Below are positions 34,744 through 54,290 of a stretch of 64,000 nt of DNA, piece by piece. The notes beneath the pieces were generated by a model. That model worked only from the letters and a program-made list of their open reading frames with translations. It was not told the DNA's origin and searched no databases. The translations under genes and the position numbers were made by a program. The stretch is taken from assembly GCA_964467535.1 (NCBI GenBank), contig CAYXRT010000004.1, forward strand, positions 20,956 to 84,955, given 5' to 3'. Origin of the DNA: an uncultured Desulfurococcales archaeon. GTDB lineage: Archaea > Thermoproteota > Thermoprotei_A > Sulfolobales > WANQ01. Every line of letters begins with the position of its first letter. Position 1 is the first letter of the stretch.

Positions 34744-36420
34744 CTAGGTATGTGTGAAAACAGTATTATATAGTCTGTTCAAAACCCATATAACGTCAAA
34801 TCCATCAACAATTGTTAAGTCCGGTGGTACTGGGTGTACAAAACCTGAGAACCCTTTTTCATTTATCAATTTATTTATGTAATTTATTAATTCATGTATA
34901 CTCATGGGTCTCTTAAGCTGTGATATTTTCTCTACTATGTGAGCTATAAACTTTACCTGACCTTTTTCAACAATTCTTGGATAATATGATAGGTCTAGTT
35001 CAAATTTAACACCATCGATGTATTCGGCAGCTATTTTGTATCCTTTAGCTCTTATCCTCCTTAAACCCTTTATACCATGAAATATTCTATTTTTTGGAAG
35101 TTTATAATCTAGCTCTATTTTATGAGGTACGTTTTCCTTTACTTTTGGAGTTATATCTCTTGGGATGTAGTCTTCCATTAAGATGATTTTGTCTGCTACA
35201 CCTAAAAATGACGACGAAGCACTTGCTACTATAATTACGCTAGCCTTGGTCTTGCGCACTAAATCTCTTACCTGTAGGCATAAAGGCCTTATTGGTTCTT
35301 TAGTAATAATTTTTGCCATTACATTGTCTTTAAACAATAGATTTGTAGCGCTAGTATCTTCATCTATTAGTATCAATTCAGCACCTGCTTCAATAGCTTC
35401 ATTTATTGATGCAGCCATACTTGTTGAACCACTTGCATCAAGACTACTATACTTAATAGTATCACTATTCATAGGAAGCTGTTCTATAAAGCTTGAAATG
35501 TCGACGCTCGATACTATTCTTCCATCTTCTGCCCTAACCATTATAGTATATTTTCTTGAAACAATATACTCTCTGCCATCACCCTTAATGTGGTTGTATA
35601 TACCTTCTTGGATTGCTTCTAGAAGTGTTGTTTTACCATGGTAGCCACCGCCAGTTATGAGGATGACCCCCATAGGCATAGCCATACCAGTAACGAGTTT
35701 ACCGCTAGGAAGCTTTACTGCTACTTTAAATGATTTAGGAGATTTAAATGGGATAGCATTCGCCATAGGCTTTTCAGATATACTCGACTCTCTAGGTAAT
35801 ATGCTTCTATCTGCAATAAAGAATGCATAATTATTTTCATATAACCATTGTCTAAGGTACTCTTGATCCAGGTAACATTCTATGTGTTTTTCTATTTCCT
35901 CCTCATTATTACGTAACGATATAATCGTGTTGATTATCTTAGGTATGCTTTCTAGCAATAACTTTCTTGCTCTATCACCTAATATTCTCCTTCCCCGTGC
36001 AGGTAATCCTATATAAATTCTCAGTACAATATCTCTATCCTTTATTTCCGCACATGATCTTTTCAGAATCCAGGGTCCTGGTCTAGGGATACCGATGTAA
36101 CAGCTATATCCGGAGCCACATCTTTTACTAAGTTTTTTAGTTATCCTATAGAGGGCTCTGGATATATAATCGGTAAGGGGGATATAGTATTCCTGCTTAA
36201 ATAGTGTTTTTGATAATTTATGAGCTCTGCTAGGTATAACTATTTCTATTACTGAAGGCGGAGCATGCGGGTCTCCTTGGACTTTAGTGAAAACGGCCTC
36301 TGCGTTACCGTAGTCTATGATTAATTCCCTTAACTTCTTATAGACACTATACCTCTTACCATCAGTTCTTCGTAATAGCTCATCTAGCTCATACATTGTA
36401 ATTTTATTCATACCTATCAT
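34744..36420 (-). CDS. Predicted ATPase of the ABC class (COG3044 / ABC_ATPase family)
   Basis: N-terminal LDELLRRTDGKRYSVYKKL and VQGDPHAPPSVIEIVIP resemble the family N-domain. P-loop-like GGGYHGKTT. Walker B-like ILIDEDTSATN. Confidence 0.7.
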   Translation of the reverse strand: MIGMNKITMYELDELLRRTDGKRYSVYKKLRELIIDYGNAEAVFTKVQGDPHAPPSVIEIVIPSRAHKLSKTLFKQEYYIPLTDYISRALYRITKKLSKRCGSGYSCYIGIPRPGPWILKRSCAEIKDRDIVLRIYIGLPARGRRILGDRARKLLLESIPKIINTIISLRNNEEEIEKHIECYLDQEYLRQWLYENNYAFFIADRSILPRESSISEKPMANAIPFKSPKSFKVAVKLPSGKLVTGMAMPMGVILITGGGYHGKTTLLEAIQEGIYNHIKGDGREYIVSRKYTIMVRAEDGRIVSSVDISSFIEQLPMNSDTIKYSSLDASGSTSMAASINEAIEAGAELILIDEDTSATNLLFKDNVMAKIITKEPIRPLCLQVRDLVRKTKASVIIVASASSSFLGVADKIILMEDYIPRDITPKVKENVPHKIELDYKLPKNRIFHGIKGLRRIRAKGYKIAAEYIDGVKFELDLSYYPRIVEKGQVKFIAHIVEKISQLKRPMSIHELINYINKLINEKGFSGFVHPVPPDLTIVDGFDVIWVLNRLYNTVFTHT

Positions 36421-37432: not shown

Positions 37433-38530
37433 TTATCTTAACCATGTTAAACTTTCTAGTGCTTTATCTAAACTCGTAGAGAATATCCCTATTGCATGAT
37501 CACTTATTCCACCAATCCATAGCAGTATGTCCTTGTATGCTATTAGTCCATTGCCAAAAATAACTCCAGGTCTATCACCATATACTTCATCAAGGCCTTT
37601 AGGCGATAGTATATAATGTGGAGTTATAGCTAGTAGTTCTCCTTGATCATCTACTATTGCTAACCCTTCCCTGTAAAATCCATCAATATTTGAGACACCA
37701 TGCCATCCAACTAGATATTCATTACTTGAAAGCTTAACCACATTAGTTGACCATCCTATTTTTATCTCCCATTCCTCATGACACAAATTGGGCTCTAGAG
37801 AGTCTACTTCTATCGCGAGCTCATTCATGTCTAATATTGCTCTCCAACAAATACTGACATCATTTACGGTAGGCCTTGTGAGAATCAACGAACTCTTTGA
37901 ATTTATTCTTACAAATGCTGTATCCCTCCAACTATCAGGTATATGTATTTTATCATATCGTTTTATTTTAAAGAATTGCTTTGACTTAACATTATAGTTT
38001 AAGTCCATTAATGCTAATGCTTGTAGACCAATATATCCCGAGACTCCTGCAAGAGGTCTTCTCCACAGTCTTTCAGGACGATGTGCAACACCAGTATATA
38101 ATACATAAAAAGTATCATCATAGATAGAGACTCTAGCATCTTCGCAACCTAATGCCATCTCCCAAGGCTCTGTAGGATATATGACTATTTTTGTTGGAAC
38201 GGGTTTCCCAATATTACCTTCTATTACTTCATCTATATTTAGCTCCATTACCCCTATACATGATGAGTAATAATAATAGCCAAATATTATCCTAGGGAAT
38301 ATGAGAATTCTTTTGTTCATCAGTACTGCGCCTGGGTTAAATACCGATACTGGTGTCTTACGAATCCAATTAATTACCTTAATATCTTCAGGGCCTATAT
38401 ATGTTAATCGATTAAATATATCCTTTGTTAATGGCCTCCTAGGTATTTTCTTCCTCTTCATGAAGTCTATAGCCTTTCTATATAGCATTTCATCTATTTC
38501 CTTAGACTTAATATGCCAAGGTTTATACAC
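37433..38530 (-). CDS. GH130/DUF377-like beta-propeller glycosidase or phosphorylase
   Basis: VFNPGAVLMNKRILIFPRI and GCEDARVSIYDDTFYVLYTGV resemble the GH130 family signature. Confidence 0.55.
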   Translation of the reverse strand: MYKPWHIKSKEIDEMLYRKAIDFMKRKKIPRRPLTKDIFNRLTYIGPEDIKVINWIRKTPVSVFNPGAVLMNKRILIFPRIIFGYYYYSSCIGVMELNIDEVIEGNIGKPVPTKIVIYPTEPWEMALGCEDARVSIYDDTFYVLYTGVAHRPERLWRRPLAGVSGYIGLQALALMDLNYNVKSKQFFKIKRYDKIHIPDSWRDTAFVRINSKSSLILTRPTVNDVSICWRAILDMNELAIEVDSLEPNLCHEEWEIKIGWSTNVVKLSSNEYLVGWHGVSNIDGFYREGLAIVDDQGELLAITPHYILSPKGLDEVYGDRPGVIFGNGLIAYKDILLWIGGISDHAIGIFSTSLDKALESLTWLR

Positions 38531-38595
38531 AAGCGTACACTCTCCTCGTAATCTCTGAGATTATTGATGTTAAAGGACAAGGATCTAAAGAGTTT

Positions 38596-38970
38596 TCACT
38601 CATCTTCCTCTTCAGGAGTATACAATTCATAACCAGCTACCCTAAAGTAGTAACCTGATTCTTTTCTAGGACCAAAACTTCTAAGACCTTTTTCTTTTAG
38701 TTGTCTTCTTATTTTATCTGCTTCCTCTTTAGATATTTCACCTCTTCGTTCCATGTAGTCAACTACTTCTAATGCTTCCTCTATAGTTTTAGCTCTTCTG
38801 ATGAAATCGTAAATTGATGGATTATAACCTCTCCAAGGATCAGGTCTTCTTCGTCTTATGAACTCTAGTTTAACTGATTTACCCTCACCATTTAATATTT
38901 CTTTAGCTAGGTTTGGAAATAATTTCCTAAATTTCTTAATATCTATTTCAATCATTCTTATTCCTCGCAT
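38596..38970 (-). CDS. Small conserved archaeal protein (resembles DUF2095)
   Basis: FRKLFPNLAKEI...PWRGYNPSIYDFIRR...RRGEISKEEADKIRRQLKEKGLRSFGPRKESGYY. 18-nt gap downstream of padR. Confidence 0.45.
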   Translation of the reverse strand: MRGIRMIEIDIKKFRKLFPNLAKEILNGEGKSVKLEFIRRRRPDPWRGYNPSIYDFIRRAKTIEEALEVVDYMERRGEISKEEADKIRRQLKEKGLRSFGPRKESGYYFRVAGYELYTPEEEDE

Positions 38971-38988: not shown

Positions 38989-39495
38989 TTAATAAATGGT
39001 TGACCGGGCTTCTCTCTCCCTTATCTCTACTTCAATTATTTTAATTACTTCATCAAGTATATTCCTCCATTCACTAAGCCTTTTCAATAATTCCTGGAGT
39101 TCGTTAATATCATACCTTCTAAGTATTTCTTTTGATCTTGGGAGCGAGCTTATTATATAGGATCTGATAGCGTGTAATTTATCATCTAACATTTTTAGCA
39201 ATATCATACCCTTATTTGTTATTTTATAATATTTCTTAGTTTTACCCTTTTCTATTATATTATAGCTTTTAATGAACCCTTTACTTTCAAGAGCTTTTAA
39301 TGCGGGATATATGGAACCTGGAACAGGTCTCCATAAGCCTAGAGTTCTTTTCTCTATCTCCTTAATTAATTCATATCCATGAAAATCTTTATCACTTAAA
39401 ATTCTAAGTATCATAAGCTTTAGAGAACCTCTAATAGCACTAAGAATAATCCTATTAACTTCATTCTCTATGTTAGCTATATCCCCATTATCCAT
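38989..39495 (-). CDS. PadR-family transcriptional regulator
   Basis: HGYELIKEIEKRT...WRPVPGSIYPALKALESKGFI is a canonical PadR wHTH. Divergent from the giant MMPL gene. Confidence 0.85.
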   Translation of the reverse strand: MDNGDIANIENEVNRIILSAIRGSLKLMILRILSDKDFHGYELIKEIEKRTLGLWRPVPGSIYPALKALESKGFIKSYNIIEKGKTKKYYKITNKGMILLKMLDDKLHAIRSYIISSLPRSKEILRRYDINELQELLKRLSEWRNILDEVIKIIEVEIREREARSTIY

Positions 39496-39597
39496 ATATT
39501 ACCCTCTACAGCTTCTCCCTCTTATCTTAGTAAACCTTAAATACTATATATCGGTTACCGATATATCCTAGGTAATAGAAGAGTTGGGGGATGACTA

Positions 39598-42500
39598 GTG
39601 ACTTTAGCGGGGATTATTATAAGGCATAGAAAAGCCATTGTGATCTTATGGGTTATAGCTATTGTCTTAAGCATTCCCATCTTTAAGAAACTTGATGAAA
39701 TACTCGTTTATGAAGAAGAAAGCTTCCTTCCGCCAACAGCTGAATCAGCTATAGCTAATAAAATTCTTAAGGAAGAATTCCGTGAAGCACCTCCAACACC
39801 ATATTACTTATTAATAATCACAAAGCTTAACACATCTGATCATCGTTATCAGGAACTCTATAAAGAGTTCAAAAATAAAGTATTCCAAAGAAACCTAGTT
39901 AAGAAATTTACAAGCTACTATGAATTTTTAAATGATACTAAGGAAATAGCTCATAAAATGTTATATAATATAGTCACCAATTTACATAATGCTACATTAA
40001 TGCTTAAAAACATGCTAGAATTAATGAACATGACCTATAACATTCTCTATAATAACATAACTATGTTACCTAAGTTCATGAATCAGCTATATAATTACAC
40101 ATTAACATTCGATAAAATGTATGTTGGCATGTATGAAAACTTTTCACAAATATCAAGAACATATAATAGCTTAGGAGAATATTTAAAACAGATTGATAAC
40201 GCTTTTAATCAAACCCTTTACTTAGTCTTATTCATAAATACGACATCATCCTATATCACATTACTGAATAATACATATTCCGAAATCTATATCAAGGTAG
40301 TTAATTTCTCGAAACCCATAGCTATAATCAGGTACTTGATAAGTGAAGTTGATGATTCATATTCAAGATTATATAATAGTTTATCTCAGTTAAGAGAGTC
40401 ACTAATCAGTTCATATAAAGGTGTACTGGAACTCAATTCCTTCATATATGAATTACCATACTATTACATAGTGACGTATTTCAATATAACGAGAACACAT
40501 TACTATATGTTAAATGCATTCAATTATTCAGCACCATTATTTATACTCGATGAATTAGTGAAATTAACTAATGTCTCTTCAATTGATCCTACCTTAGGAC
40601 CTATTAATAAATCTCTTGCATTATACCTGTACTATGAAGTTAAGGTTAAGAATAGGTTTGGTGATCCTAAAAATGTTGATGAATACGACTTAAATGTTCT
40701 TACGAAAGAATTATTACAGGCTTTAATATCAAAACACGTACCTAAAGAGTATCGTGATATTGTTAAAATATATTTAAGTACAATAGCTAGTGAATGGAGT
40801 AGCTTTATAGATGAGTTTATTAAGAAGGGCGGTATTCTTAAGTGGTATGTTTATGATAAAGAAAACCTAACAAATACATGGATTAGTCAAGTAAATGTTT
40901 ACTATAAATTAAATAGCGTTTATGAAAATCTATTAAAGACTTCATTTAATAACTCTAAAAATGATATAGCTGAAACCCTAGCGGTCAAATTTAATATCCC
41001 ATTAGAACTTGCATTAAATATCGTTAATATTGCTCTAGATATAGGATTTCCAGCTAATGAAACAAGAGCTAAGGAGCTTATTATAGACCTCTTCGCTAAA
41101 ATTCTAAGTGAGAAAATAAAGGAACCTTCAATCAATTATAAGGAGTTAGTAAGACATATATGGAAGCATGGGGTTTCGCCAGAGCTAGCGTTAAATCTAA
41201 CACGTATAATCACGTATAAATACATTGATGAACTGGAAATACCTGAAGAATTTATAAGTAAAGAGGAAATAAAGAACAAATTACTACCTTTAATATTCAG
41301 CGTAATAGCTGAAGCCGATCCCGATGCTAAAGGACTTTTAACGACCGACCCTAATCTCAAAAAGCATACCATTTATGTCGTGGTTACATTAATGGACATA
41401 TTAAACATTAAACTTCCAAGAGAACTAGCAGAAGTCGATATATATGATTTAATGACATCGATTTATGATTACCTAGTTAAGAAAGATGATAAAATTATTA
41501 GATCTATGATTAGAAATCTAATGTTAAATTTTGTTGAAAAAGAAGTGCCTAAGGAGTACATTCCTATAGCATCTAAGCTTGTGGATCTAACGTGTACCTT
41601 ATGGCCTGTTAATGCTAGTAAAGAATTAGAAATCATTGAAACGTGTGTTAACTTCATGGTTAATGTCACTAAAGCTGAGATATCAATAAATATAACTCCT
41701 ATTATGTTGAAGTATTATCCATTAATTAAAGAGGCAGAGGTCATTAAGGAGTTAAGGAATATATCTTGGAACATTTTATTGAATTTAATGGAAGAAGTTA
41801 ATGAAACTGCTCCAACATTATTAGCTATCTTAAAATCACCCAATGTATTTAGCTTTAAAATTAGGGATATATTAGTCGATAGAGGACTATGGCTCCACGA
41901 TGTAGAGGATGAAGTTAAAGAGGCGTTTAAAGAACTTCTTATAGATACTTTAATGAAATACAAGGTTCATGGAATAATCTTAAACAAAGATACTATAGTT
42001 AAAGCTGTAAATTTAATAATAGCTAATGAAACTCTAAACGCATCAAGACTTATATTAAGTGAAGTATTTAGAAAGCTTCCAGTAGAATACAATATTACAT
42101 CCATAATCCGATACTTAATTAACCAAAAGCCAGGTTTTACAAGTAATAAAAGTAGGGTTAAGGAACTCATAATAGATATATTCTTAGATGAATTTAGCAG
42201 CAGGTTTAAGGATGTAGTTAGTAAGAATACAATAGCATTTACGTTGAACGTAGTCTATGGACCGGAGGAATTACCAAGGAGTAGTATAAGTCATGAGTTA
42301 TCATCTAATCTAACTTATATTTTACTAGAAGAAATCATAACTAATACCCTTAAGAAGGCTAATGTAACAAATGAAACTACTATATGTGAATTACTTGCTA
42401 AAATACGTGGCAAGTTACCAATTACTAAGAGCCAGCTTAAACACATAGTTATTCAGGAAATCCTAACTCAAGCTACGGAATTTGTTAAGGGTACGGATGT

Positions 42501-44481
42501 GGAGAAATACATAACTTCATTAGTTAATGATGTATATGGGCTAAAGGAAAATGCCACTAAGCACGATTATGATGCAATAATATTAAAGTACTTGAACTCT
42601 ATAGTAGAGGATATCTTGGAAGAATCAAAGGAGCTTTTAGGAGTACTTGTTAGCGATGATAATGATACAATGTTAATAGCTATAGAAACATATGAGAATC
42701 CAGAAAGTGATGAAGCTTTCAATAAGGTTTTAATGGTTAGGAAAATAGCTAAGGAAATCTTTGAGAAAAAAGCACTATGTAAAGTATACTTAACTGGCCC
42801 TCAACCTTTATTAACTGATGTAGCGGAGCATGCTAGAAAGGATAGGGAACTTGTTGATAGGCTTAGCCCAATACTAGTAACGATAGTGTTATTTGTGGTC
42901 CTTGGCGGTATTCTGGCACTAATAATGCCTATGGTAGGTATAATATCATCAATAATAATATCATCAGCAATAATATATTTAGTAATATCTAAAATAACCG
43001 ATATACACATCTGGTCAAGAATAATAATGATTACGACAGCTTTAGGCCTTGGTGTAGATTATTCAACATACCTTATGTCAAGATTTAAGGAAGAACTAGC
43101 TAAGGGTAAAACTAGGGAAGAAGCAGCTGAAATAGCACTAAGTAAATCTGCACCTGCAATACTAGCAGCTGCAACAACCGATATGGCTGGTTTCGGAATA
43201 CTTGCAGTTGCATGGGACTTTCCATTTCTTAGAAGCCTTGGCGTGACAATACCAATAGCGATATTAATGGTTATGTTAGCGGGATTAACGTTAATACCAT
43301 CAATATTGGCAATGATCGGTAGTAGCAAAGCATTTTGGTGGCCTAGAGGAATAAAACCATTAAGGGAGGTAAAGAAATCATCATTTATACAAAAAGTAGC
43401 TAGGAGAGCAGGAATCGTAATATTGGTCTTCATCGTGATTTCATTAACCTCTGCATATACTTACGTAAAGTTATTTAGACCATCACACGAATATTCTATA
43501 GCATTACCGATGGGAGCTGAATCTTCTCAAGGACTCGAACTACTAAAGAGAGAATTAAAGCCAGGAATACTAGCACCCGTTTATGTAATTTTAGAATTAA
43601 AGGTTAATGCTACTAAAAATGAAACCTTACATTTAATCGAGGAAATTAGTAGATATATTGACTTATTACCTTATACTACAATCGTTTATGGACCTACGAG
43701 ACCTAATGGAACATTACTAGAGTCGGTAAATGTGGAAACCGTAAGAAAAATGGGCGGTTTAAGGTATATTGCAGGAAATAAGGTGTTATTGAAAGTAGCA
43801 TTAAATGCAAGCCCTGATTCAGATTATGCTACTACTGCTCTAAGAGAACTTAGAAGAGATCTAAAGGAGCTAATTAATAAGGAGTATAGTGATATAATTT
43901 CTCATGTATACGTCGGTGGTTTTACAGCAACTTTAGTAGATCTAGATATAACTCTTGAAGAAACCTTCTGGCACAAAATATTGCCAATTGCATTCATAGC
44001 TATGTTCATATTATTAACGTTAACACTGAGAACAGTAATAGGCTCAGCAATAGCTGTCATATTAATAGGCAGTGCTATCTTATGGGGTGTGGCATTAACA
44101 ACAGTAACGTTTAAGGTATTATTAGGTATTCCGATAATATGGTTCCTACCAATAATGGTCTTTAGCATAATACTTGGAGTAGGTATGGACTATCTTTCAT
44201 TCTACATGGTTAGAGCCATGGAAGAATCGAGGAATAGATCAATGGATGAAGCTCTTGCTATCGCTGGTGGTGCTGTAAGTAGAATAATAATAGGATTAGC
44301 ACTCATAGTATGTGGAGCCTACGCTGCTCTACTAGCTGCTGATATGATGCTTTTAAGGGAAATAGGATTCGCATTGACATCAAGTATATTCATAATAAGT
44401 ATATTGACTTCATATACAGTACTACCAGCAATATTATCAAAATTGGGTAAGAAGGCTTGGTGGCCGAGAAAAATTAGCTAA
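39598..44481 (+). CDS. Giant MMPL/RND-superfamily membrane transporter (1627 aa)
   Basis: TM1 at residues ~13-30. About 1050 aa of extracytoplasmic region. TM bundle from ~residue 1089 with GLGVDYSTYLMSRFKEE (MMPL signature). About 170-aa second loop. Second TM bundle with GVGMDYLSFYMVRAMEE. Confidence 0.8.
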   Translation: MTLAGIIIRHRKAIVILWVIAIVLSIPIFKKLDEILVYEEESFLPPTAESAIANKILKEEFREAPPTPYYLLIITKLNTSDHRYQELYKEFKNKVFQRNLVKKFTSYYEFLNDTKEIAHKMLYNIVTNLHNATLMLKNMLELMNMTYNILYNNITMLPKFMNQLYNYTLTFDKMYVGMYENFSQISRTYNSLGEYLKQIDNAFNQTLYLVLFINTTSSYITLLNNTYSEIYIKVVNFSKPIAIIRYLISEVDDSYSRLYNSLSQLRESLISSYKGVLELNSFIYELPYYYIVTYFNITRTHYYMLNAFNYSAPLFILDELVKLTNVSSIDPTLGPINKSLALYLYYEVKVKNRFGDPKNVDEYDLNVLTKELLQALISKHVPKEYRDIVKIYLSTIASEWSSFIDEFIKKGGILKWYVYDKENLTNTWISQVNVYYKLNSVYENLLKTSFNNSKNDIAETLAVKFNIPLELALNIVNIALDIGFPANETRAKELIIDLFAKILSEKIKEPSINYKELVRHIWKHGVSPELALNLTRIITYKYIDELEIPEEFISKEEIKNKLLPLIFSVIAEADPDAKGLLTTDPNLKKHTIYVVVTLMDILNIKLPRELAEVDIYDLMTSIYDYLVKKDDKIIRSMIRNLMLNFVEKEVPKEYIPIASKLVDLTCTLWPVNASKELEIIETCVNFMVNVTKAEISINITPIMLKYYPLIKEAEVIKELRNISWNILLNLMEEVNETAPTLLAILKSPNVFSFKIRDILVDRGLWLHDVEDEVKEAFKELLIDTLMKYKVHGIILNKDTIVKAVNLIIANETLNASRLILSEVFRKLPVEYNITSIIRYLINQKPGFTSNKSRVKELIIDIFLDEFSSRFKDVVSKNTIAFTLNVVYGPEELPRSSISHELSSNLTYILLEEIITNTLKKANVTNETTICELLAKIRGKLPITKSQLKHIVIQEILTQATEFVKGTDVEKYITSLVNDVYGLKENATKHDYDAIILKYLNSIVEDILEESKELLGVLVSDDNDTMLIAIETYENPESDEAFNKVLMVRKIAKEIFEKKALCKVYLTGPQPLLTDVAEHARKDRELVDRLSPILVTIVLFVVLGGILALIMPMVGIISSIIISSAIIYLVISKITDIHIWSRIIMITTALGLGVDYSTYLMSRFKEELAKGKTREEAAEIALSKSAPAILAAATTDMAGFGILAVAWDFPFLRSLGVTIPIAILMVMLAGLTLIPSILAMIGSSKAFWWPRGIKPLREVKKSSFIQKVARRAGIVILVFIVISLTSAYTYVKLFRPSHEYSIALPMGAESSQGLELLKRELKPGILAPVYVILELKVNATKNETLHLIEEISRYIDLLPYTTIVYGPTRPNGTLLESVNVETVRKMGGLRYIAGNKVLLKVALNASPDSDYATTALRELRRDLKELINKEYSDIISHVYVGGFTATLVDLDITLEETFWHKILPIAFIAMFILLTLTLRTVIGSAIAVILIGSAILWGVALTTVTFKVLLGIPIIWFLPIMVFSIILGVGMDYLSFYMVRAMEESRNRSMDEALAIAGGAVSRIIIGLALIVCGAYAALLAADMMLLREIGFALTSSIFIISILTSYTVLPAILSKLGKKAWWPRKIS

Positions 44482-44616
44482 TAAAATGTCATGTTATCCT
44501 AGACAATTAATAAATTGTTAGTGTCATTTAATCCTTGACTTTTGCGTTCTATGGAATAGCATCAAATATTTTTAAGCTCATATTTATTTTGAAGTGATGA
44601 ATAGGAGGTTACATAA

Positions 44617-45798
44617 TTGAAGGTAATACGAGTTATAATTACATTCCTTTTATTATTCATCCTTACTGCTTTTATCCCGCTTAGTACCATAGCTTATACA
44701 TCATCAAAAACGTTCGGATATATAGCTAACGAACCTGTAGATGCTATAGAAGTTGTATTAAATAAGCCTGACATTAAGTATGATTGGAGTAAGTTTAGAT
44801 CTCTTAGTAATATAATCCCTATAAGATATGATATCGCTATTGAAGCATATGCTTATAGAAGCCATTATAATCCAAATATTGCAGTAATAGTCACGCTTCA
44901 AAGCCTCAAAGAACCTAAAGGAAAGGATAAGTACTTTACAATTATGGTAATGGGCTTACGAAGATATGTGAAGATATTAAATACAACTATTAAACCAACT
45001 CCTGTGGTACTAACAGTAATTGATATAAATTTATTAAAGCAAGCAGCTGAAAAGCTTGGTTGGAATGTAACTGTTTATACAATAAAAGATTTAGTTGAAT
45101 TTGAAGTTGAATTCTTTGTAAAGATAAAAGATGGTGTGTCAATCTTAACATCGGAGGATATAGAAGAAGCTCCGCTCTTTATACCTAGTAATGAAAGTAA
45201 AGCAGTAGTATTAGAAAAGAGACTTGATAACGCAACTATCAAGCTATGTTTAATTAACCTACCTATAGCTCCTGGTAAATGGAAGATAAGAATACATCAA
45301 GTAGTTTCTGGAGATTTCCAACAAGTACGTTATAAATATATCTATGAGATTTATAATCTTATTAATTCATTAGGTTTAGTTCTTCCCATGGGCTTACCCC
45401 TTCCTGTGAAAGTAATAACTGTGAGATTTGAAGATCTTGTCAATGCCCTAAGGTTTGAACTTGAGTGGTTTAGAGATATAGGTATCATAAAGAACCTTAC
45501 AGATGACGATATAGAGAAAATAATCTCTACTGCTAGTACTAGCTTTTATGGATGGAATGAGAGATTGGTTTATTATAATAAAACTTGGCTACCTTATCAT
45601 ATTGTTGTTCGTAAATTTAATGGCACGCTATTAGATTACACACCCATTCCTAAAGTCGATGTTGATGAATTACCAGGTTCACCACCATTAGTAATTAAGG
45701 AGAAGGTAGATCCTATGAAGATAATGATGGCATTACTAATATCGTTATTAATAGCGTTTATAGCGCACATATTATTAAAGACAACAATGAGGAAGTAA
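44617..45798 (+). CDS. Hypothetical surface protein (N-terminal signal/anchor, C-terminal TM anchor)
   Basis: VIRVIITFLLLFILTAFIPLSTIA at the N-terminus. IMMALLISLLIAFIAHILL plus a basic tail at the C-terminus. Several NxS/T sequons. Confidence 0.5.
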   Translation: MKVIRVIITFLLLFILTAFIPLSTIAYTSSKTFGYIANEPVDAIEVVLNKPDIKYDWSKFRSLSNIIPIRYDIAIEAYAYRSHYNPNIAVIVTLQSLKEPKGKDKYFTIMVMGLRRYVKILNTTIKPTPVVLTVIDINLLKQAAEKLGWNVTVYTIKDLVEFEVEFFVKIKDGVSILTSEDIEEAPLFIPSNESKAVVLEKRLDNATIKLCLINLPIAPGKWKIRIHQVVSGDFQQVRYKYIYEIYNLINSLGLVLPMGLPLPVKVITVRFEDLVNALRFELEWFRDIGIIKNLTDDDIEKIISTASTSFYGWNERLVYYNKTWLPYHIVVRKFNGTLLDYTPIPKVDVDELPGSPPLVIKEKVDPMKIMMALLISLLIAFIAHILLKTTMRK

Positions 45799-45801
45799 AT
45801 A

Positions 45802-46209
45802 TTGATCGATCGAGAAGTATTGATAGCCTACCTTAAACTATCAAAACATAAGAGCGTCGGCGTTAGAGAATTTCAAAGATTAATGAAGTATAAAAGTCCA
45901 GGTAAAGCTAAATGGATGCTTGAAAAATTGGTAAAGCTAGGCCTTGTGGAAAGATGCGAAGAAAGCATCTATAGGGTAAAGAAGGAGCTTCCATTTCCAT
46001 TATCGACATATATTGTCTTAAGAGGAATGCTTTTACCGAGGATATCACCAATAACCCTATTTGCAACAGTATTCGTATTAACATATGCAGTATTAGTAAC
46101 GGTACCTATAGAGACATTGATAGCATTCATGATAATAATCGCTCCATATTGGATGGAAACTCTAAGAACTATAAAACAGCTAAGAGAGCAGATAAAAAGC
46201 TCTTCATAA
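45802..46209 (+). CDS. Membrane-tethered winged-helix protein
   Basis: N-terminal wHTH-like SVGVREFQRLMKYKSPGKAKWMLEKLVKLGLVE followed by two hydrophobic helices. 3-nt gap after the upstream gene. Confidence 0.5.
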   Translation: MIDREVLIAYLKLSKHKSVGVREFQRLMKYKSPGKAKWMLEKLVKLGLVERCEESIYRVKKELPFPLSTYIVLRGMLLPRISPITLFATVFVLTYAVLVTVPIETLIAFMIIIAPYWMETLRTIKQLREQIKSSS

Positions 46210-46256: not shown

Positions 46257-46583
46257 CTATTTCCTCAAGAACAGATTTTCTAAATTATTGATTATTGACT
46301 TTATCTTACTTACATATCTTTCACCATCAACTTTAGGTGCGACACGCATGGCAACATAGCTTTGCGGTGAAAGCTTTATAACTATGTACTTTTCTGTAGG
46401 ACTTAGTTGAAGTATACAGTACTCGAATGCATGGAGATTTCTTATGAGAATCGAGATTATGTCGTGAAGTATTTTTGAAAACCTAGAACCCTGATATATA
46501 ATCTGTTCACCTTCTGCAAAATTTACCAACAAAGCCTCCTTAACTATATCACCATCCACTAAAAGATCTAATATGTTCCTCAC
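46257..46583 (-). CDS. Hypothetical protein (weak roadblock/LC7-like pattern)
   Basis: 108-aa ORF with alternating hydrophobic pattern. No firm motif. Confidence 0.4.
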   Translation of the reverse strand: MRNILDLLVDGDIVKEALLVNFAEGEQIIYQGSRFSKILHDIISILIRNLHAFEYCILQLSPTEKYIVIKLSPQSYVAMRVAPKVDGERYVSKIKSIINNLENLFLRK

Positions 46584-46899: not shown

Positions 46900-47805
46900 A
46901 TGTTTGAAGACAGGTACATGATTGATGATACATTCTTGGAAAAGCTTAGGAAGATCAAAGAAATAGACAAGGTAGTAGATATTTCTAGATCAACAATACA
47001 ATTGGAAATACTTCTCTATTTAGGAGTTCGTGAGAAAGCTTCTATTGATGACCTGGTAGCAGGTTTAAGTTATAGAAGGAAGGCAATCACAGATGCATTA
47101 AGGAAGCTTATTAAGAAGAATCTAGTAGTAAAAGATCAAAGTTCGGAGGAATTTGAGCTAAGTAATACGGGTAGGAAATATTTTAATGAACTTCTTCGAA
47201 TCCTTGGCTATAAAAACACTATGAAAGGGATACATGAAATAAAGAAATCAATGAATCCTACTTCACGATTAAAGAATATGATTAATGAAATTTCAACAGC
47301 CTACTATCTACATGAAACATTGATTTGCCTAGGCTCATCTCCTAAGCATGAAGCATCTATAGAAACTCTTTCAAGTATAGTTAACTTAAGTCCCCAGAGA
47401 TTAAGGTCATACTTGGACCTTTTTGCAAATAAATCAAATCCTGAACTAAGATTGTTAAAGAAGATTTATAGAAATACGTTATTTACAAATATACTTTCAT
47501 TACTAGGAGTAAAGAGAAGTAAGGTAAAGGTATACTATGGGTTAACAAAGCAAGGCTTAGGAATACTTCGTAAACTGCCTACCTATATTAAATTGAAAAG
47601 AAATGTTTTCTTAAGAATACTGTTTAAACTTACAAGGAGCTGTCATCCAAAAGAAGCTCATAGAAAAATGCTTTTATTGTTATGTGGAGGCACAATTTTA
47701 GCATATGCATTAACGATCCTACGTCCATGGGGTGTATGGATAGCTGCTATATGGCTTTACGCATTTATTGTCTTAACAGCTCTAACTATCCTTGCAACTG
47801 AGTAA
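46900..47805 (+). CDS. ArnR-like membrane-bound archaellum regulator (wHTH plus two C-terminal TM helices)
   Basis: wHTH STIQLEILLYLGVREKASIDDLVAGLSYRRKAITDALRKLIKKNLV. C-terminal LLLLCGGTILAYALTIL and VWIAAIWLYAFIVLTALTIL. Located immediately upstream of flaB, as in Sulfolobus. Confidence 0.55.
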   Translation: MFEDRYMIDDTFLEKLRKIKEIDKVVDISRSTIQLEILLYLGVREKASIDDLVAGLSYRRKAITDALRKLIKKNLVVKDQSSEEFELSNTGRKYFNELLRILGYKNTMKGIHEIKKSMNPTSRLKNMINEISTAYYLHETLICLGSSPKHEASIETLSSIVNLSPQRLRSYLDLFANKSNPELRLLKKIYRNTLFTNILSLLGVKRSKVKVYYGLTKQGLGILRKLPTYIKLKRNVFLRILFKLTRSCHPKEAHRKMLLLLCGGTILAYALTILRPWGVWIAAIWLYAFIVLTALTILATE

Positions 47806-48220: not shown

Positions 48221-48880
48221 TTGGGTGATAGATGGTTGAGAGGTAAAGTTAAAGGTATAACAGGTTTAGAAACAGCAATAATCTTAATAGCCTTCGTAAT
48301 AGTGGCCTCGGTATTTGCCTTCGCGGTTATGAACATGGGTCTTTTAACAACGCAGAAGGCAGGGTCAACTGTAGAAAGTGGTATGAAGCAAGCATCATCA
48401 GCACTTCAACTAGCAGGAAGCGTAATAGCATATGACGGCCTATATAATGGTTCTACATTTATTACCAATAGCGGCAATGAAAATAAGGCTGATGCCATTG
48501 AAATCTACGTTAAACTAGCCCCAGGTAATGAACCTATCAGTATAAGCAATATGACAATATCATACACTAACAAGAGAGTACATGTAGGAGACTTAGTGAG
48601 CCTAAATAATACACAAGCTCCAGCCACCTACCCACTTATAGTATTCAAGTGGATTGGTGCTGATAACGATAGCTTATTGGAGTCTAATGAAGTACTAGCT
48701 ATAATAATTAACGTAGGAAACGTCACTGGTATAGACACTGTTGGCCCATCATCAGGTAGCGACGGTGCTTTAGGACCTAATGAGTGGTTTAAGGTGGAGA
48801 TTAAGCCTCCTGTTGGAGCCGTGTTAAGTGTTGAACGTACATTGCCGGCAGCTATTGACTCAGTTATGGATTTAGGTTAA
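48221..48880 (+). CDS. flaB: Archaellin
   Basis: Class III signal peptide and conserved hydrophobic N-terminus KG/ITGLETAIILIAFVIVASVFAFAVMNMGLLTTQKAGS, near-collinear with Sulfolobus FlaB. Candidate TTG starts at 48221 or 48236. Confidence 0.85.
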   Translation: MGDRWLRGKVKGITGLETAIILIAFVIVASVFAFAVMNMGLLTTQKAGSTVESGMKQASSALQLAGSVIAYDGLYNGSTFITNSGNENKADAIEIYVKLAPGNEPISISNMTISYTNKRVHVGDLVSLNNTQAPATYPLIVFKWIGADNDSLLESNEVLAIIINVGNVTGIDTVGPSSGSDGALGPNEWFKVEIKPPVGAVLSVERTLPAAIDSVMDLG

Positions 48881-48962: not shown

Positions 48963-49736
48963 ATGTCGAATCAAAGTATGACCGAGAGCTATGAGGAGCT
49001 AGAATTTAAGGTAAAAGCACTCGAAGAACGCATAGCTAAACTTGAGAACGAACTGAACTCGGTAGTAGATGAAGTCAGGACTGTCTTGGTTGATGTGAGG
49101 AGTACAATTTCTGAACTCGATAATCCATTAAACTATATTAAGGAACTAGGTTTAAGCTCGTTAATTGAAAGCGCTATTGAGGAAAAGCTTGAAAAAATCA
49201 TAGATGATAAGCTTAAGGAGATAAGAAAAGAGGTAAAAGAAAAAATTTCACAGGTAAAGACACTTAAACAGCCTGAAGAGAAGAAAGAAGAGAAAAAGCA
49301 TACTAAACCTTCACAGTTAGAGTTAAGCCCTTATGGCATTGATTTGAAATTAAATAAATCTTTAGAACGTCTCGTGAGAGAATCATCAACTTCAATAGAT
49401 AAGATCTTGAGTATGCTTACTTGTGCAGGTTGTCTCGTGTATATTTTCGGTAAGAGGGGTGTTGAGAGAGTATTGGATGAATATGCTAAGAGAGGATGGA
49501 TTACACATGATCTTAAATTAACGTTATTACAGATTTCATCATTATTAGAATTAGATGGCTTACCCGATGAAAAAGAGACTGGTATTGAGGATCACTTAAT
49601 AGTAATGTATTTACTAGATAAACTACATAGAGGGGCACCTTTAACAGACTTTATTGTCTTATTATTACTGCTTAGCAAGTACGCAGGTTTTCCATTTATT
49701 CTAAGAGTTATTGAAAGAGAACAAAAGCCTAGGTGA
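48963..49736 (+). CDS. flaX: FlaX-position protein with coiled coil and FlaC/D/E-like C-terminal domain
   Basis: N-terminal heptad-rich LEFKVKALEERIAKLENELN. C-terminal CLVYIFGKRGVERVLDEYAKRGWITHDL resembles the archaeal FlaD/E domain. Sits between flaB and flaG. Confidence 0.55.
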   Translation: MSNQSMTESYEELEFKVKALEERIAKLENELNSVVDEVRTVLVDVRSTISELDNPLNYIKELGLSSLIESAIEEKLEKIIDDKLKEIRKEVKEKISQVKTLKQPEEKKEEKKHTKPSQLELSPYGIDLKLNKSLERLVRESSTSIDKILSMLTCAGCLVYIFGKRGVERVLDEYAKRGWITHDLKLTLLQISSLLELDGLPDEKETGIEDHLIVMYLLDKLHRGAPLTDFIVLLLLLSKYAGFPFILRVIEREQKPR

Positions 49737-51530: not shown

Positions 51531-54290
51531 ATGGAGGTAATGGATTCAAAGATTCCATGTAGCTTCGATGTTAGCAGGTGTTGGATTTGTGCAAAGATGG
51601 GTGGTGAATTTGAACGCTTTGCTAAGTATAATCCACACCTAGTTCAATACGTACACGAATGGTTTTCTACATCTCGTTTAGGATTTCCTAAATTTGTTGT
51701 AAGACTCTCACGAGAAATGGGTTATTCAAAGAGGTACAATTACATATACCCTGTTGGAGGACCCATATTCATACACGTTTATAGAGATCTAGGATACACG
51801 CATGGAATATACCATCCAATAGAGCCATTATTACCACCAGATAAGAAAATATTATTAAGGCAAGTTGAGGAACTTATTGCGTCTCTCATTGATGATCAAA
51901 TTATTGAAGAACTTAAAGGTAATAAAGCTGAAGTACTTACAAAACTACTCAATGAAGTAGTAGAAATAGTAGATAAGAAGGAATTTAGTAGGATTACCAA
52001 AAATACACGTCATCTATTCAGCTTTAGAAGAAATAAGAAGATAAGTAAAATCTATGTAGATGAAGAAACCTATGCAAGATTAAAGTATGAGTATCTAAGA
52101 GAGAAGGCAGGTTTTGGTGTCTTAGAGCCATTTTTAAAAGATCCTTACATTGAAGATATATCATGTGATGGTGTTGGACCTATCTTTGTCGAACATAAGG
52201 TCTTCCACTCATTAAGGTCAACTGTAGAGTTTAAGACTGATGAAGAATTAAATGCGTTCATAATCAGGTTAACTGAACGTATAGGAAAACCTGTAAGACC
52301 CAAGAGACCAATAGTTGATGCTGCACTACCTGACGGCTCTAGATTAAATGTGGTATTCGGTAGAGATATTAGCCGTAAAGGCTCTAACTTCACTATCAGA
52401 AAGCATTCAAAAATACCATTGAGTATAACAGAGCTCATAAAGTTTGGAACACTAGATGCTAGGATAGCTGCATATCTCTGGATGCTACTAGAGTTTAAGA
52501 TGAGCTTATTTATTTGTGGTGAAACTGCTTCAGGTAAGACTACGACGCTTAATGCAATTACGGTGTTTATTAATCCTTCAGCAAAGATTGTCTCAATTGA
52601 AGATACTCCTGAAGTAGTCTTACCACATCCAAACTGGGTTAGTGAAGTTACGAGACACGGCGAAGACGAGAAAACATCAATAGATCTATATGACCTACTT
52701 AAAGCTGCTCTTAGACAAAGACCAGACTACATAATAGTTGGTGAGATTAGAGGTAAGGAGGGTCACGTGGCATTTCAGGCAATGCAGAGCGTAGCTTGGG
52801 AAACTCCTGTCCTAATAAGAGATGTAATTACAGGAAAAGTAGAATTAATGCCCATAGGCGCCTTTGTTGATAGATTCTATAAGGAATATGAAGAAAAAAT
52901 CCCTAAACCTGTAAGAGGTTATGAAGTGCTGTCCATGGACCATTATGGTAAAGTTAAGTGGTCCAGAATAGAGTACGTCTTGCGCCATAGAGCTGAGGAA
53001 GTATATGAAATAACTTATGAAGGCAAAGGAACGATAAAAGCTACAGGCTCTCATAGTGTTTTCGTATTAGATGAAGATACTCTAGAAATTAGACCTAAAC
53101 TTGTCTCCGAACTTCAAAGGGATGACCTACTAATCTCCTTTGTTAGAAGGAATTATGTTCCAAGCATGTCAACTATAGCGGAGACCCGTAAACTTCCACG
53201 CAAGAGAAGCATTCATGTCGAACTTATAGACGGTGGTCAAGAAGAAGTTGTAACCTATACTACTAGAGATAAAAGATTAGCCGTAGAACTTATTTGGCTA
53301 TTTAAGCTTGCAGGCTTAGAATCAAAACTTTCTAAGGCTTATGATTCAAGGGCTGGCGAGTACTATGATATCCACATAAGGTTATATAATACTGAAAACT
53401 CAACATCATGGTGTGAAAGAGTACCTCTTAAACCAATACTTAAGTTCCTTGAAAGAACAAAATTAATTGATAAGTTACCTACAGGATTAGCCTATACAAT
53501 CAAGAAGCTCTACGAATCAGGTCAAAGATTTATTACGAGGCGTATCGCTAGGAAAATACTGAACTTCATAGAAGAACATATTATAGAGCTCAACAATGAG
53601 AATGTACTATTTATAAATAAGCTGAGAAAATTTCTAGAGAGCGATATAGCCCTTGTCCGAGTGCTAAATGTAAAGAAGATTCCATATAGGGGCTACGTAT
53701 ATGACTTATCCACACCTGAAACAGAGCTCTTCATAGGCGGCGAAATACCAATAGCTCTACATAATACTGGGCACCCAGTCCTATCAACATTTCACGCAGC
53801 TAATATGGAAAAGCTTATACAGAGACTAACCGGCAAACCTATTGAAATTCCACCAGCATATATTGATAATCTAAATGCAGTCGTATTTCAAAACTTAATA
53901 ATAGACCCTAGAACAGGTCGTGCAGAAAGAAGAGTAATAAGTGTTAATGAGGTTATAGGCTATGATGCAGCTGAAGGAACATACAATTTTATTGAAATAT
54001 TCTCATGGGATCCTAAGAGGGACGTCCATACATTCAGAGGTGTAGGTAATAGTTACTTACTTGAATACAAGATTGCACCAAGAAGGGGATATGTGGGTAG
54101 AGAAGTTAGGAAAATCTATGATGAATTAGAGATGAGGGCTCAGATAATACAAAAACTTGTTGAAAATAAAGTATTCAACTACTATGACGTATGGAAGGTT
54201 ATTTCAAAGATCTATGAAATGCCTATTGAAGATGCTTTAAAGAGGATTGATAGAATATGCCAAGAAGTTTTAAGGAAATCTTCTCAATAG
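51531..54290 (+). CDS. flaI: Archaellum motor ATPase FlaI, intein-containing precursor
   Basis: Walker A GETASGKTT, Asp box SIEDTPE, Walker B RQRPDYIIVGEIRG, His box TGHPVLSTFHA. 919 aa because of a 326-aa insertion. Confidence 0.9.
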   Translation: MEVMDSKIPCSFDVSRCWICAKMGGEFERFAKYNPHLVQYVHEWFSTSRLGFPKFVVRLSREMGYSKRYNYIYPVGGPIFIHVYRDLGYTHGIYHPIEPLLPPDKKILLRQVEELIASLIDDQIIEELKGNKAEVLTKLLNEVVEIVDKKEFSRITKNTRHLFSFRRNKKISKIYVDEETYARLKYEYLREKAGFGVLEPFLKDPYIEDISCDGVGPIFVEHKVFHSLRSTVEFKTDEELNAFIIRLTERIGKPVRPKRPIVDAALPDGSRLNVVFGRDISRKGSNFTIRKHSKIPLSITELIKFGTLDARIAAYLWMLLEFKMSLFICGETASGKTTTLNAITVFINPSAKIVSIEDTPEVVLPHPNWVSEVTRHGEDEKTSIDLYDLLKAALRQRPDYIIVGEIRGKEGHVAFQAMQSVAWETPVLIRDVITGKVELMPIGAFVDRFYKEYEEKIPKPVRGYEVLSMDHYGKVKWSRIEYVLRHRAEEVYEITYEGKGTIKATGSHSVFVLDEDTLEIRPKLVSELQRDDLLISFVRRNYVPSMSTIAETRKLPRKRSIHVELIDGGQEEVVTYTTRDKRLAVELIWLFKLAGLESKLSKAYDSRAGEYYDIHIRLYNTENSTSWCERVPLKPILKFLERTKLIDKLPTGLAYTIKKLYESGQRFITRRIARKILNFIEEHIIELNNENVLFINKLRKFLESDIALVRVLNVKKIPYRGYVYDLSTPETELFIGGEIPIALHNTGHPVLSTFHAANMEKLIQRLTGKPIEIPPAYIDNLNAVVFQNLIIDPRTGRAERRVISVNEVIGYDAAEGTYNFIEIFSWDPKRDVHTFRGVGNSYLLEYKIAPRRGYVGREVRKIYDELEMRAQIIQKLVENKVFNYYDVWKVISKIYEMPIEDALKRIDRICQEVLRKSSQ
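52788..53765 (+). mobile_element. Intein in FlaI (residues 420-745)
   Basis: Starts SVAWETPVLIRD (block A-like, Ser1). KATGSHSVFV (block B TxxH). YVYDLSTPETELFIGG (block F-like). Ends IALHN followed by Thr+1. Flanked by FQAMQ and TGHP, which are contiguous in intein-free secretion-type ATPases. Confidence 0.8.

Follow-up and report, generated by a model that had tools for sequence, protein, structure and literature searches.

A giant MMPL gene divergent from a PadR regulator

The DNA analysed here, referred to as the window, is a stretch of 64,000 nucleotides (nt) from an uncultured Desulfurococcales archaeon (assembly GCA_964467535.1, contig CAYXRT010000004.1, positions 20,956 to 84,955). 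It encodes a membrane protein of 1627 amino acids (aa) of the MMPL type of the RND superfamily, here named giant MMPL, whose gene is divergent from that of a PadR-family regulator and is followed by genes for a 393-aa and a 135-aa protein (Table 1). The preliminary description of this locus, made from the sequence letters only, had reported an open reading frame (ORF) of this length, and we recovered it on the + strand with a GTG start. The motifs that it quoted all lie where it had placed them (GLGVDYSTYLMSRFKEE at residue 1150, GVGMDYLSFYMVRAMEE at 1527, VPKEY at 381 and 650, KELIIDxF at 492 and 855), and so do the neighbouring genes, with a gap of 102 bp to the PadR gene and the two downstream genes starting after 135 nt and then 3 nt.

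The unusual length alone would speak for an assembly or frameshift artefact in which an ordinary MMPL gene was joined to that of a surface protein, a concern raised in the preliminary description as well. An independent ENA contig carries an identical 1627-aa product, and the orthologue P0002 (1635 aa, from a JGI metagenome) is colinear with it from residue 1 to the end, at 60% identity and with short in-frame indels only, so that the ORF is not a frameshift fusion. Identity to P0002 is 77% in the MMPL core and 51% in the ectodomain. The same architecture is found in about 20 further clusters (see below), and the expansion sits inside periplasmic domain 1 (PD1), with the first transmembrane (TM) helix and half of PD1 on its N-terminal side, an order that a simple fusion cannot yield. 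On these grounds, the artefact was rejected as hardly credible.

Table 1. Features of the giant MMPL locus. Positions refer to the window, residues to the giant MMPL; L numbers denote loci used for comparison.
Feature	Position	Strand	Basis
PadR-family transcription regulator, 168 aa, divergent from the giant MMPL gene	38989..39495	-	Pfam PadR, E 5.1e-21, 74.9 bits against a cut-off of 27
TTAAATA, TATA-box-like element, putative promoter of the giant MMPL gene	39537..39543	+	sequence; invariant in alignment with L001 and L003
Perfect 10-1-10 palindrome, ATATATCGGT-N-ACCGATATAT, candidate PadR operator, between TATA-like box and start codon	39546..39566	.	sequence; conservation
Giant MMPL gene, 1627 aa	39598..44481	+	ORF, GTG start to stop; Pfam MMPL; colinear 60%-identical orthologue
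TM1 (~10-30) and N-terminal beta-alpha-beta half of PD1 (~31-106)	39625..39915	+	hydropathy; model strands 70-75 and 103-105, helix 82-97
Antiparallel coiled-coil hairpin, helices 107-190 and 192-306, 11 sequons	39916..40515	+	model, local pLDDT about 80-94; periodicity; heptads
All-alpha domain of about 35 short helices (~307-1010), 18 sequons between residues 330 and 1000	40516..42627	+	model; no Pfam or PDB match
C-terminal beta-alpha-beta half of PD1 (~1011-1085; unit ~1025-1066), leading into TM2	42628..42852	+	model strands, helix
MMPL core: TM2-6 with D1154-Y1155, TM7, normal-size periplasmic domain 2 (~1295-1455), TM8-12 with D1531-Y1532	42853..44478	+	hydropathy; MmpL5 alignment; GxGxDY near-invariant
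393-aa membrane-anchored, sequon-bearing protein, distant Heavy_Cys_CGP relative, functional link to the giant MMPL uncertain	44617..45798	+	TIGR04292 below threshold; PF27854
135-aa protein, N-terminal region resembling a winged helix-turn-helix, two hydrophobic helices at the C-terminus; gene always placed directly after that of the 393-aa protein	45802..46209	+	homologues in L005 and L006

The core is of ordinary MMPL type

The C-terminal part of the protein had been assigned to the MMPL/RND type with a normal core, and the Pfam MMPL model (PF03176) indeed matches in two stretches with an E-value of 1.4e-63 and 215.3 bits against a gathering cut-off of 20.5, beginning at residue 966; the last ~600 residues make up a complete MMPL core. 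Hydropathy places TM1 at the N-terminus, a hydrophobic block at 1084-1250, TM7 at ~1265-1290 and a second block at 1456-1616, which, together with a colinear alignment to MmpL5 through all helices, fits a topology of 12 TM helices with large loops after TM1 and TM7. The second of these loops, given as ~170 aa in the preliminary description, measures about 160 aa and is thus of normal size.

MmpL5 and MmpL4 are the nearest solved structures, with E-values of about 1e-32 to 1e-27, and MmpL3 and HpnN come next; for MmpL5, MmpL4 and MmpL3 together, E-values range from 1e-19 to 1e-32. The alignment to coiled-coil-deleted MmpL5 is unbroken from the second half of PD1 to the C-terminal WWPR motif, and both Asp-Tyr (DY) relay pairs, in TM4 and TM10, match those of MmpL5. 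In a family alignment of 22 sequences (see below), GxGxDY is at least 90% conserved. Bit scores stay under the cut-offs of the NCBIfam models for TIGR00833 (actII/MMPL; 213 of 875), TIGR00921 (HAE3; 129 of 352), MmpL3 (76 of 1400), HpnN (67 of 752) and BstA (36 of 1400), and the best core-only relatives are at most 27% identical. As no NCBIfam subfamily cut-off is reached and core relatives are this distant, the giant MMPL belongs to a deep, uncharacterised MMPL lineage.

A large helical insertion splits periplasmic domain 1

Ordinary MMPL or HAE2-HAE3 RND proteins (COG2409 YdfJ, TIGR00833, TIGR00921, HpnN, MmpL3) share core fold and motifs with the giant MMPL and provide its best NCBIfam and Pfam matches, but differ from it in the first extracytoplasmic loop. 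This loop, between TM1 and the hydrophobic block at 1084, had been described as ~1050 aa long and several times the usual size; it measures about 1046 aa, whereas 60 ordinary MMPL homologues have a median of ~137 aa and a maximum of 376. We modelled the ectodomain with AlphaFold2 on the 22-sequence alignment, with a mean predicted local distance difference test score (pLDDT) of 83 and a predicted template modelling score (pTM) of 0.48, and the model is mostly helical, in agreement with what had been expected from the sequence.

In this model, the expansion is an insertion of ~900 residues within PD1, between its two beta-alpha-beta halves, which opens with a long coiled-coil hairpin and continues with an all-helical domain of ~700 aa. 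Neither the position of the insertion nor the hairpin had been noticed in the preliminary description. Within the ectodomain, family-wide conservation is highest in the N-terminal half of PD1, and the C-terminal half aligns to residues ~132-200 of MmpL5 and MmpL4.

The two hairpin helices, of 84 and 115 residues, have a hydrophobic periodicity of 3.5 residues with a power of 77 and 103, compared with 17 in the remaining ectodomain, and their heptad a and d positions are hydrophobic at a fraction of 0.67-0.94. Blocks of the hairpin are also alike in profile-profile comparison (85-95% probability). At 1.5 A per residue, the ascending helix of 84 residues gives the hairpin a length of ~12.5 nm. 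Hydrophobic residues account for about 50% of the hairpin, in excess of what a lone two-helix coil would require, and this suggests further packing surfaces; the value is compatible with a six-helix tube, without being decisive for it. In the eight family members where both flanking motifs were located, the distance between the anchors SYYD and RxxYYL spans 134-196 residues, so the length of the stalk differs between lineages.

The ~700-aa domain contains a family-conserved DPxAxGxL motif, and the family occupancy profile confines its segment ~650-750 to the closest relatives. No family was found for this region: pieces of the ectodomain gave only noise against Pfam at E<=5, and the sole NCBIfam signal was weak coiled-coil noise of SMC type in relatives. 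The ectodomain profile had no match to PDB sequences at E<=1, and a Foldseek search of the model against PDB returned generic long coiled-coil proteins only (MukB, SMC, dynein; TM-score at most 0.12), so that no fold was assigned.

The recurrence of short motifs had been taken as a hint of internal duplication. A clean duplication was rejected, as self-BLASTP of the protein gives no off-diagonal match at E<=10. What stands of the hint lies at the profile level, with one pair of blocks, 491-573 and 587-664, matching at 82% probability; the block pairs that hold VPKEY and KELIID reach 27% and 34%. Repeated 5-mers number 6 against 1.1 expected, and shuffled sequences reach 7.

The ectodomain is rich in conserved sequons

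More than two dozen N-glycosylation sequons (NxS/T) had been counted by eye in the first loop; residues 30-1085 contain 33. In 2000 composition-preserving shuffles 9.7 +/- 2.8 were expected, with a maximum of 21, which makes the excess 3.4-fold. Although the ectodomain is only 51% identical to that of the orthologue, 24 of the 33 sequons are conserved in position, and this conservation is far above what independent drift would leave, indicating that the sites are under selection. Excess and conservation together support an extracellular ectodomain that is predicted to be N-glycosylated. Across the family, sequon density ranges from 1.4 to 5.6 per 100 aa.

The giant MMPL is a member of a small archaeal family

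An exhaustive search of 1.84 billion cluster representatives with a hidden Markov model of the ectodomain only yielded 24 matches at E<=1e-3, almost all of them MMPLs of 1229-1616 aa with a first loop of 590-1053 aa, in about 20 clusters. By these matches, the giant MMPL is not a one-off protein but a member of a small archaeal family, which had gone unnoticed in the preliminary description. A word-indexed protein search with the full protein gave P0002 as the single full-length homologue, and the same sister lineage was all that came up when GTDB genomes and JGI metagenomes were scanned for DNA patterns, with one contig labelled uncultured Desulfurococcales archaeon. The architecture is thus already present in databases under a generic name, and a single member is publicly named, as 'MMPL family transporter [Thermococci archaeon]'.

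A protein of the RND superfamily with a very large, sequon-rich and putatively glycosylated ectodomain might also transport inward or act as a sensor or receptor, which would liken it to the eukaryotic sterol-sensing-domain members NPC1, Patched and Dispatched and their large glycosylated ectodomains, either capturing lipids or hydrophobic nutrients or serving as a receptor for viruses or cell-cell contact. The ectodomain is indeed fast-evolving and variable in length between lineages, as is often the case for receptors and virus-exposed proteins. However, the nearest sequence relatives are bacterial MMPL exporters, neither the ectodomains of NPC1 and Patched nor YhgE/Pip models came up as similar in searches of Pfam, NCBIfam and PDB, and the conserved sequon positions argue for purifying selection and not for an arms race. 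We consider such a role quite improbable and favour an exporter, as discussed below.

Comparison with mycobacterial MmpL stalks

With the mycobacterial siderophore and drug exporters MmpL4 and MmpL5 (E ~1e-32), the giant MMPL shares the Pfam family, 12 TM helices and aligned DY pairs in TM4 and TM10, and with MmpL4, MmpL5 and MmpL10 it shares a long antiparallel coiled-coil hairpin of ~12-13 nm placed after the first beta-alpha-beta unit of a periplasmic subdomain. The coiled-coil of MmpL5 (196 aa) is required for efflux and, in a model of the trimer, forms a six-helix tube of 13 nm, and the adjacent regulator of MmpL5, Rv0678, is a transcriptional repressor (PMC12501195). In MmpL10, the coiled-coil drives oligomerisation, an arrangement that was proposed for most MmpLs (PMC12183618).

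The site of the insertion differs. Full-length MmpL4 aligns to the giant MMPL in two pieces that flank MmpL4 residues 517-755, its coiled-coil insertion in domain 2, which is located in the loop that follows the first beta-alpha-beta unit there. This site maps into the normal-size periplasmic domain 2 (PD2) of the giant MMPL, whose ~160 aa align gap-free to coiled-coil-deleted MmpL5 and contain no coiled-coil. The insertion of the giant MMPL lies instead in domain 1, after the first beta-alpha-beta unit of PD1, and we infer that this is the pseudo-symmetric counterpart of the PD2 site of MmpL4, MmpL5 and MmpL10. Unlike the insertions of MmpL4 and MmpL5, which are of ~200 aa, it has ~900 aa, continues after the hairpin with the ~700-aa helical domain, and is sequon-rich and presumably N-glycosylated. 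The host is an archaeon without mycomembrane, core identity is ~25% and, again unlike MmpL4 and MmpL5, no MmpS-like partner was found among eight neighbouring proteins scanned for families.

Coiled-coil stalks on MMPL proteins are known from mycobacteria; what is new here is the location in domain 1, the size, the extra helical domain and the archaeal setting. This suggests two or more separate origins of a coiled-coil stalk on MMPL proteins, mycobacteria having placed it in domain 2 and archaea in domain 1, and the stalk would then be a general solution and not a mycobacterial oddity.

A conserved PadR gene and a candidate operator

The divergent PadR gene of the preliminary description is present, and its link to the giant MMPL turned out to be stronger than could be known then, given its recurrence in other lineages and a conserved palindrome. 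A PadR gene adjoins the giant MMPL gene in 7 of the 9 lineages with readable context: it is divergent and upstream in the window, L001/L003, L008, L011 and L012, and immediately downstream on the same strand in L009 and L013. The PadR proteins associated with giant MMPLs align along their length and have a GLW(R/K)P motif in common.

The palindrome upstream of the giant MMPL gene is unique, with no second such site in the window. Both of its arms and the TTAAATA box are identical in L001 and L003, which belong to the lineage with 60% identity, and the remaining spacer has diverged. Related half-sites, ATAT(A/G)TCGG(T/G), are found upstream of the MMPL gene in L008, L011 and L013. The position between TATA box and start point fits the usual mechanism of repression in archaea, with PadR binding to the palindrome and responding to a ligand as the putative steps, and the adjacent PadR probably switches the giant MMPL gene on and off.

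PadR-regulated efflux systems include LmrR-LmrCD and LadR-MdrL, and regulators such as LmrR and LadR are typical of inducible efflux or detoxification genes, not of constitutive envelope components. Like in these systems, the PadR gene of the window stands beside the transporter that it presumably controls, with a palindromic candidate operator in the shared promoter region; unlike in them, the transporter is an MMPL and not an ABC or MFS protein, and the promoter is archaeal in architecture. The giant MMPL also resembles MmpL5 in having an adjacent winged-helix regulator, which is a PadR here and not of the MarR type, to which Rv0678 belongs.

On its other side, the PadR gene is adjoined by genes for a GH130 protein (beta-1,4-mannooligosaccharide phosphorylase family) and a DUF2095 protein, both in the window (37433-38970, - strand) and in L001 (217-1840), and L003 (3388-5012) appears to share this order, judging by ORFs that agree in size and position. 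This adjacency may be functional, for instance in glycan turnover, or may be mere retained synteny.

Proposed function

The reading that we favour, with about even confidence, is that the giant MMPL is an inducible exporter whose ectodomain, by analogy with MmpL5, bridges the pseudoperiplasm as a conduit to the outside or as a hand-off scaffold. Its conventional engine, with 12 TM helices, the Asp-Tyr relay in TM4 and TM10 and two ferredoxin-like periplasmic subdomains, would drive the export of a hydrophobic or amphiphilic substrate by the proton-motive force, in the manner of MMPL proteins of the RND superfamily. The ectodomain would project between the membrane and the S-layer, where the putatively N-glycosylated hairpin (~12 nm) and the ~700-residue helical domain would serve as conduit or scaffold, probably after oligomerisation. 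Meanwhile, a PadR dimer would bind the 10-1-10 palindrome between TATA box and start site and block transcription, until PadR is made to release the DNA by binding a ligand, for which the substrate, or a stress compound related to it, is the most likely candidate.

Several observations weigh against this proposal. With the core far under every curated NCBIfam subfamily cut-off, characterised transporters give no basis for assigning it a function; nothing in the gene neighbourhood points to a substrate, and we found no description of the family in the literature on archaeal MMPL and RND proteins. The idea of a trimer or tube comes from the analogy with MmpL5 alone. At a pTM of 0.48, the model does not fix where the hairpin stands with respect to the ~700-aa domain and the membrane, and, because the descending helix exceeds the ascending one by 31 residues, the large helical domain may sit near the base and not at the tip. 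The ascending helix has 10.7% Met, but the Met-rich stretch is not conserved in P0002; a Met-lined lumen as in MmpL5 was dropped as evidence since the Met positions are mostly unconserved in this orthologue. As for the regulator, 2 of the 9 lineages (L007 and L010) have no adjacent PadR, and no half-site is recognisable in L012 nor, on present reading, in L009.

The ectodomain makes up ~65% of the protein, is sequon-heavy like archaeal surface proteins and combines a long coiled-coil with a large helical domain, with no match to a ligand-binding family. These features would also suit a mainly structural ectodomain, that is, a glycosylated spacer, an S-layer tether or a surface scaffold, for which the MMPL core would be mostly an anchor or an energiser of conformational change, and the variation in hairpin length (~134-196 residues between anchors) is what would be expected if it were matched to envelope dimensions. 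Yet the core is the most conserved part of the protein (77% versus 51%), with both DY pairs near-invariant, which would be needless for a mere anchor, and a repressor of the ligand-responsive PadR type is conserved beside the gene. A mainly structural role therefore appears unlikely to us, and an inducible exporter remains the preferred explanation.

Taken to its full extent, the exporter proposal would describe a single-polypeptide, envelope-spanning RND pump of some hyperthermophilic archaea, in which a glycosylated coiled-coil tube and a helical cap, both built from PD1, carry lipids or hydrophobic toxic compounds over the pseudoperiplasm as far as the S-layer or through it, under the control of a dedicated PadR sensor-repressor. 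Such a pump would be independent of both the adaptor and TolC solution of Gram-negatives and the domain-2 tube of MmpL5 in mycobacteria. We put this wider picture forward tentatively, as possible rather than probable.

How lipids and hydrophobic molecules pass between membrane and S-layer in archaea is essentially unknown, and archaeal RND and MMPL proteins are almost unstudied. A thermostable, self-contained version might aid structural work on the hand-off from RND proteins to an extracellular conduit, the pair of PadR and candidate operator could reveal the inducer and, via the inducer, the substrate, and the ~700-aa helical domain is a clear target for the study of structure and function.

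The downstream 393-aa and 135-aa proteins

The preliminary description had joined the PadR gene, the giant MMPL gene and the two genes downstream of it into one module, and had called the 393-aa protein doubly anchored. This protein has an N-terminal hydrophobic segment, 7 sequons, 1 Cys and a C-terminal TM helix; the double anchoring is not supported as it was put, since the N-terminal stretch may be a cleaved signal peptide. Its C-terminal third only matches TIGR04292 (E 5.5e-17, 61.7 bits against a cut-off of 200), and it has a precomputed PF27854 match and none in the Pfam library scanned. At its C-terminus there is a plain TM helix without CGP signal, outside the definition of Heavy_Cys_CGP, and the protein is at most a distant relative of that family. 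For the 135-aa protein of the window, neither Pfam nor NCBIfam gave a match; its copy in L005 has a faint TrmB match.

Homologues of the 135-aa protein, 60% identical, directly follow a homologue of the 393-aa protein in L005 and L006. In L005, of the sister lineage, the order is MMPL, PaREP1, 394 aa and 137 aa, the upstream MMPL fragment being 95% identical to the orthologue. In L006 (GCA_964611985.1, 437-6010), 379-aa and 136-aa homologues come after a PadR gene divergent from MatE, EamA and DUF362 genes, without an MMPL gene, and this PadR is related and has a GKWSP motif. The pair is absent from the seven other giant MMPL loci (L007-L013). Thus, the window and one sister lineage are the only places where it adjoins a giant MMPL, in the latter with the PaREP1 gene in between, and the four-gene module is not supported as it was put: kept together, found without MMPL in L006 and missing from the other loci, the pair is a separable unit. 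Its occurrence, twice, beside PadR-associated exporter loci is suggestive, but is not evidence of a four-gene module.

A haloarchaeal RND permease, HVO_A0467, and an adjacent secreted, C-terminally anchored glycoprotein, HVO_A0466 ('RND-T-associated protein'), were proposed to be partners in the pseudoperiplasm, and BLAST matches from extensive coiled-coil regions were disregarded when both protein families were collected (PMC11349517). There, as in the window, an archaeal RND/MMPL permease stands beside a (here putative) membrane-anchored glycoprotein, which makes a possible analogy; unlike the haloarchaeal pairing, the 393-aa and 135-aa pair is not generally linked to giant MMPLs and also occurs without an MMPL.

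Two further candidates for a counterpart of the 393-aa gene were discarded: the 399-aa gene upstream of the MMPL gene of P0083, which shows no similarity to it, and a 60-aa gene fragment at the end of L001, the link to the sister lineage being provided by L005 instead. The PaREP1-family gene (162 aa) follows the MMPL gene of the sister lineage at 7489-7977 in L001 and 1270-1758 in L005, and L005 continues with a MazE-PIN toxin-antitoxin pair.

Other genes in the surroundings

Beyond the GH130 and DUF2095 genes, a gene at 34744-36420 (- strand) encodes a 558-aa 'ATPase of the ABC class' (ABC_N, an ABC_ATPase P-loop domain with E 4e-108, and MRB1590_C), which appears unrelated to the giant MMPL. 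Downstream, a 108-aa ORF with no family match (46257-46583, - strand), also called on the ENA contig, lies between the 135-aa gene and a gene at 46900-47805 (+ strand) for a 301-aa protein with a MarR-type winged helix-turn-helix and C-terminal hydrophobic helices. The latter gene lies directly upstream of an archaellum operon, and its product matches the NCBIfam model ArnR, an HTH-type activator of archaellum genes (E 3.1e-34, sub-equivalog); it is probably the local archaellum regulator, outside the giant MMPL locus.

The archaellum operon (48221 to ~55000, + strand) is complete and of crenarchaeal type, and starts ~2 kb downstream of the stretch formed by the giant MMPL, 393-aa and 135-aa genes. 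It comprises Flagellin_arch-type genes at 48221, 49743 and ~50244, an Arch_fla_DE-domain gene at 48963 and genes for an ATPase-domain protein, FlaI and a T2SSF-domain protein; from their domains, we take the Arch_fla_DE, ATPase and T2SSF proteins to be FlaX-like, FlaH-like and FlaJ-like, respectively. In the FlaI/ArlI ATPase (gene at 51531-54290, + strand, 919 aa), the T2SSE ATPase domain is split by an intein splicing domain at residues ~463-745 (Pfam E 3.2e-15).

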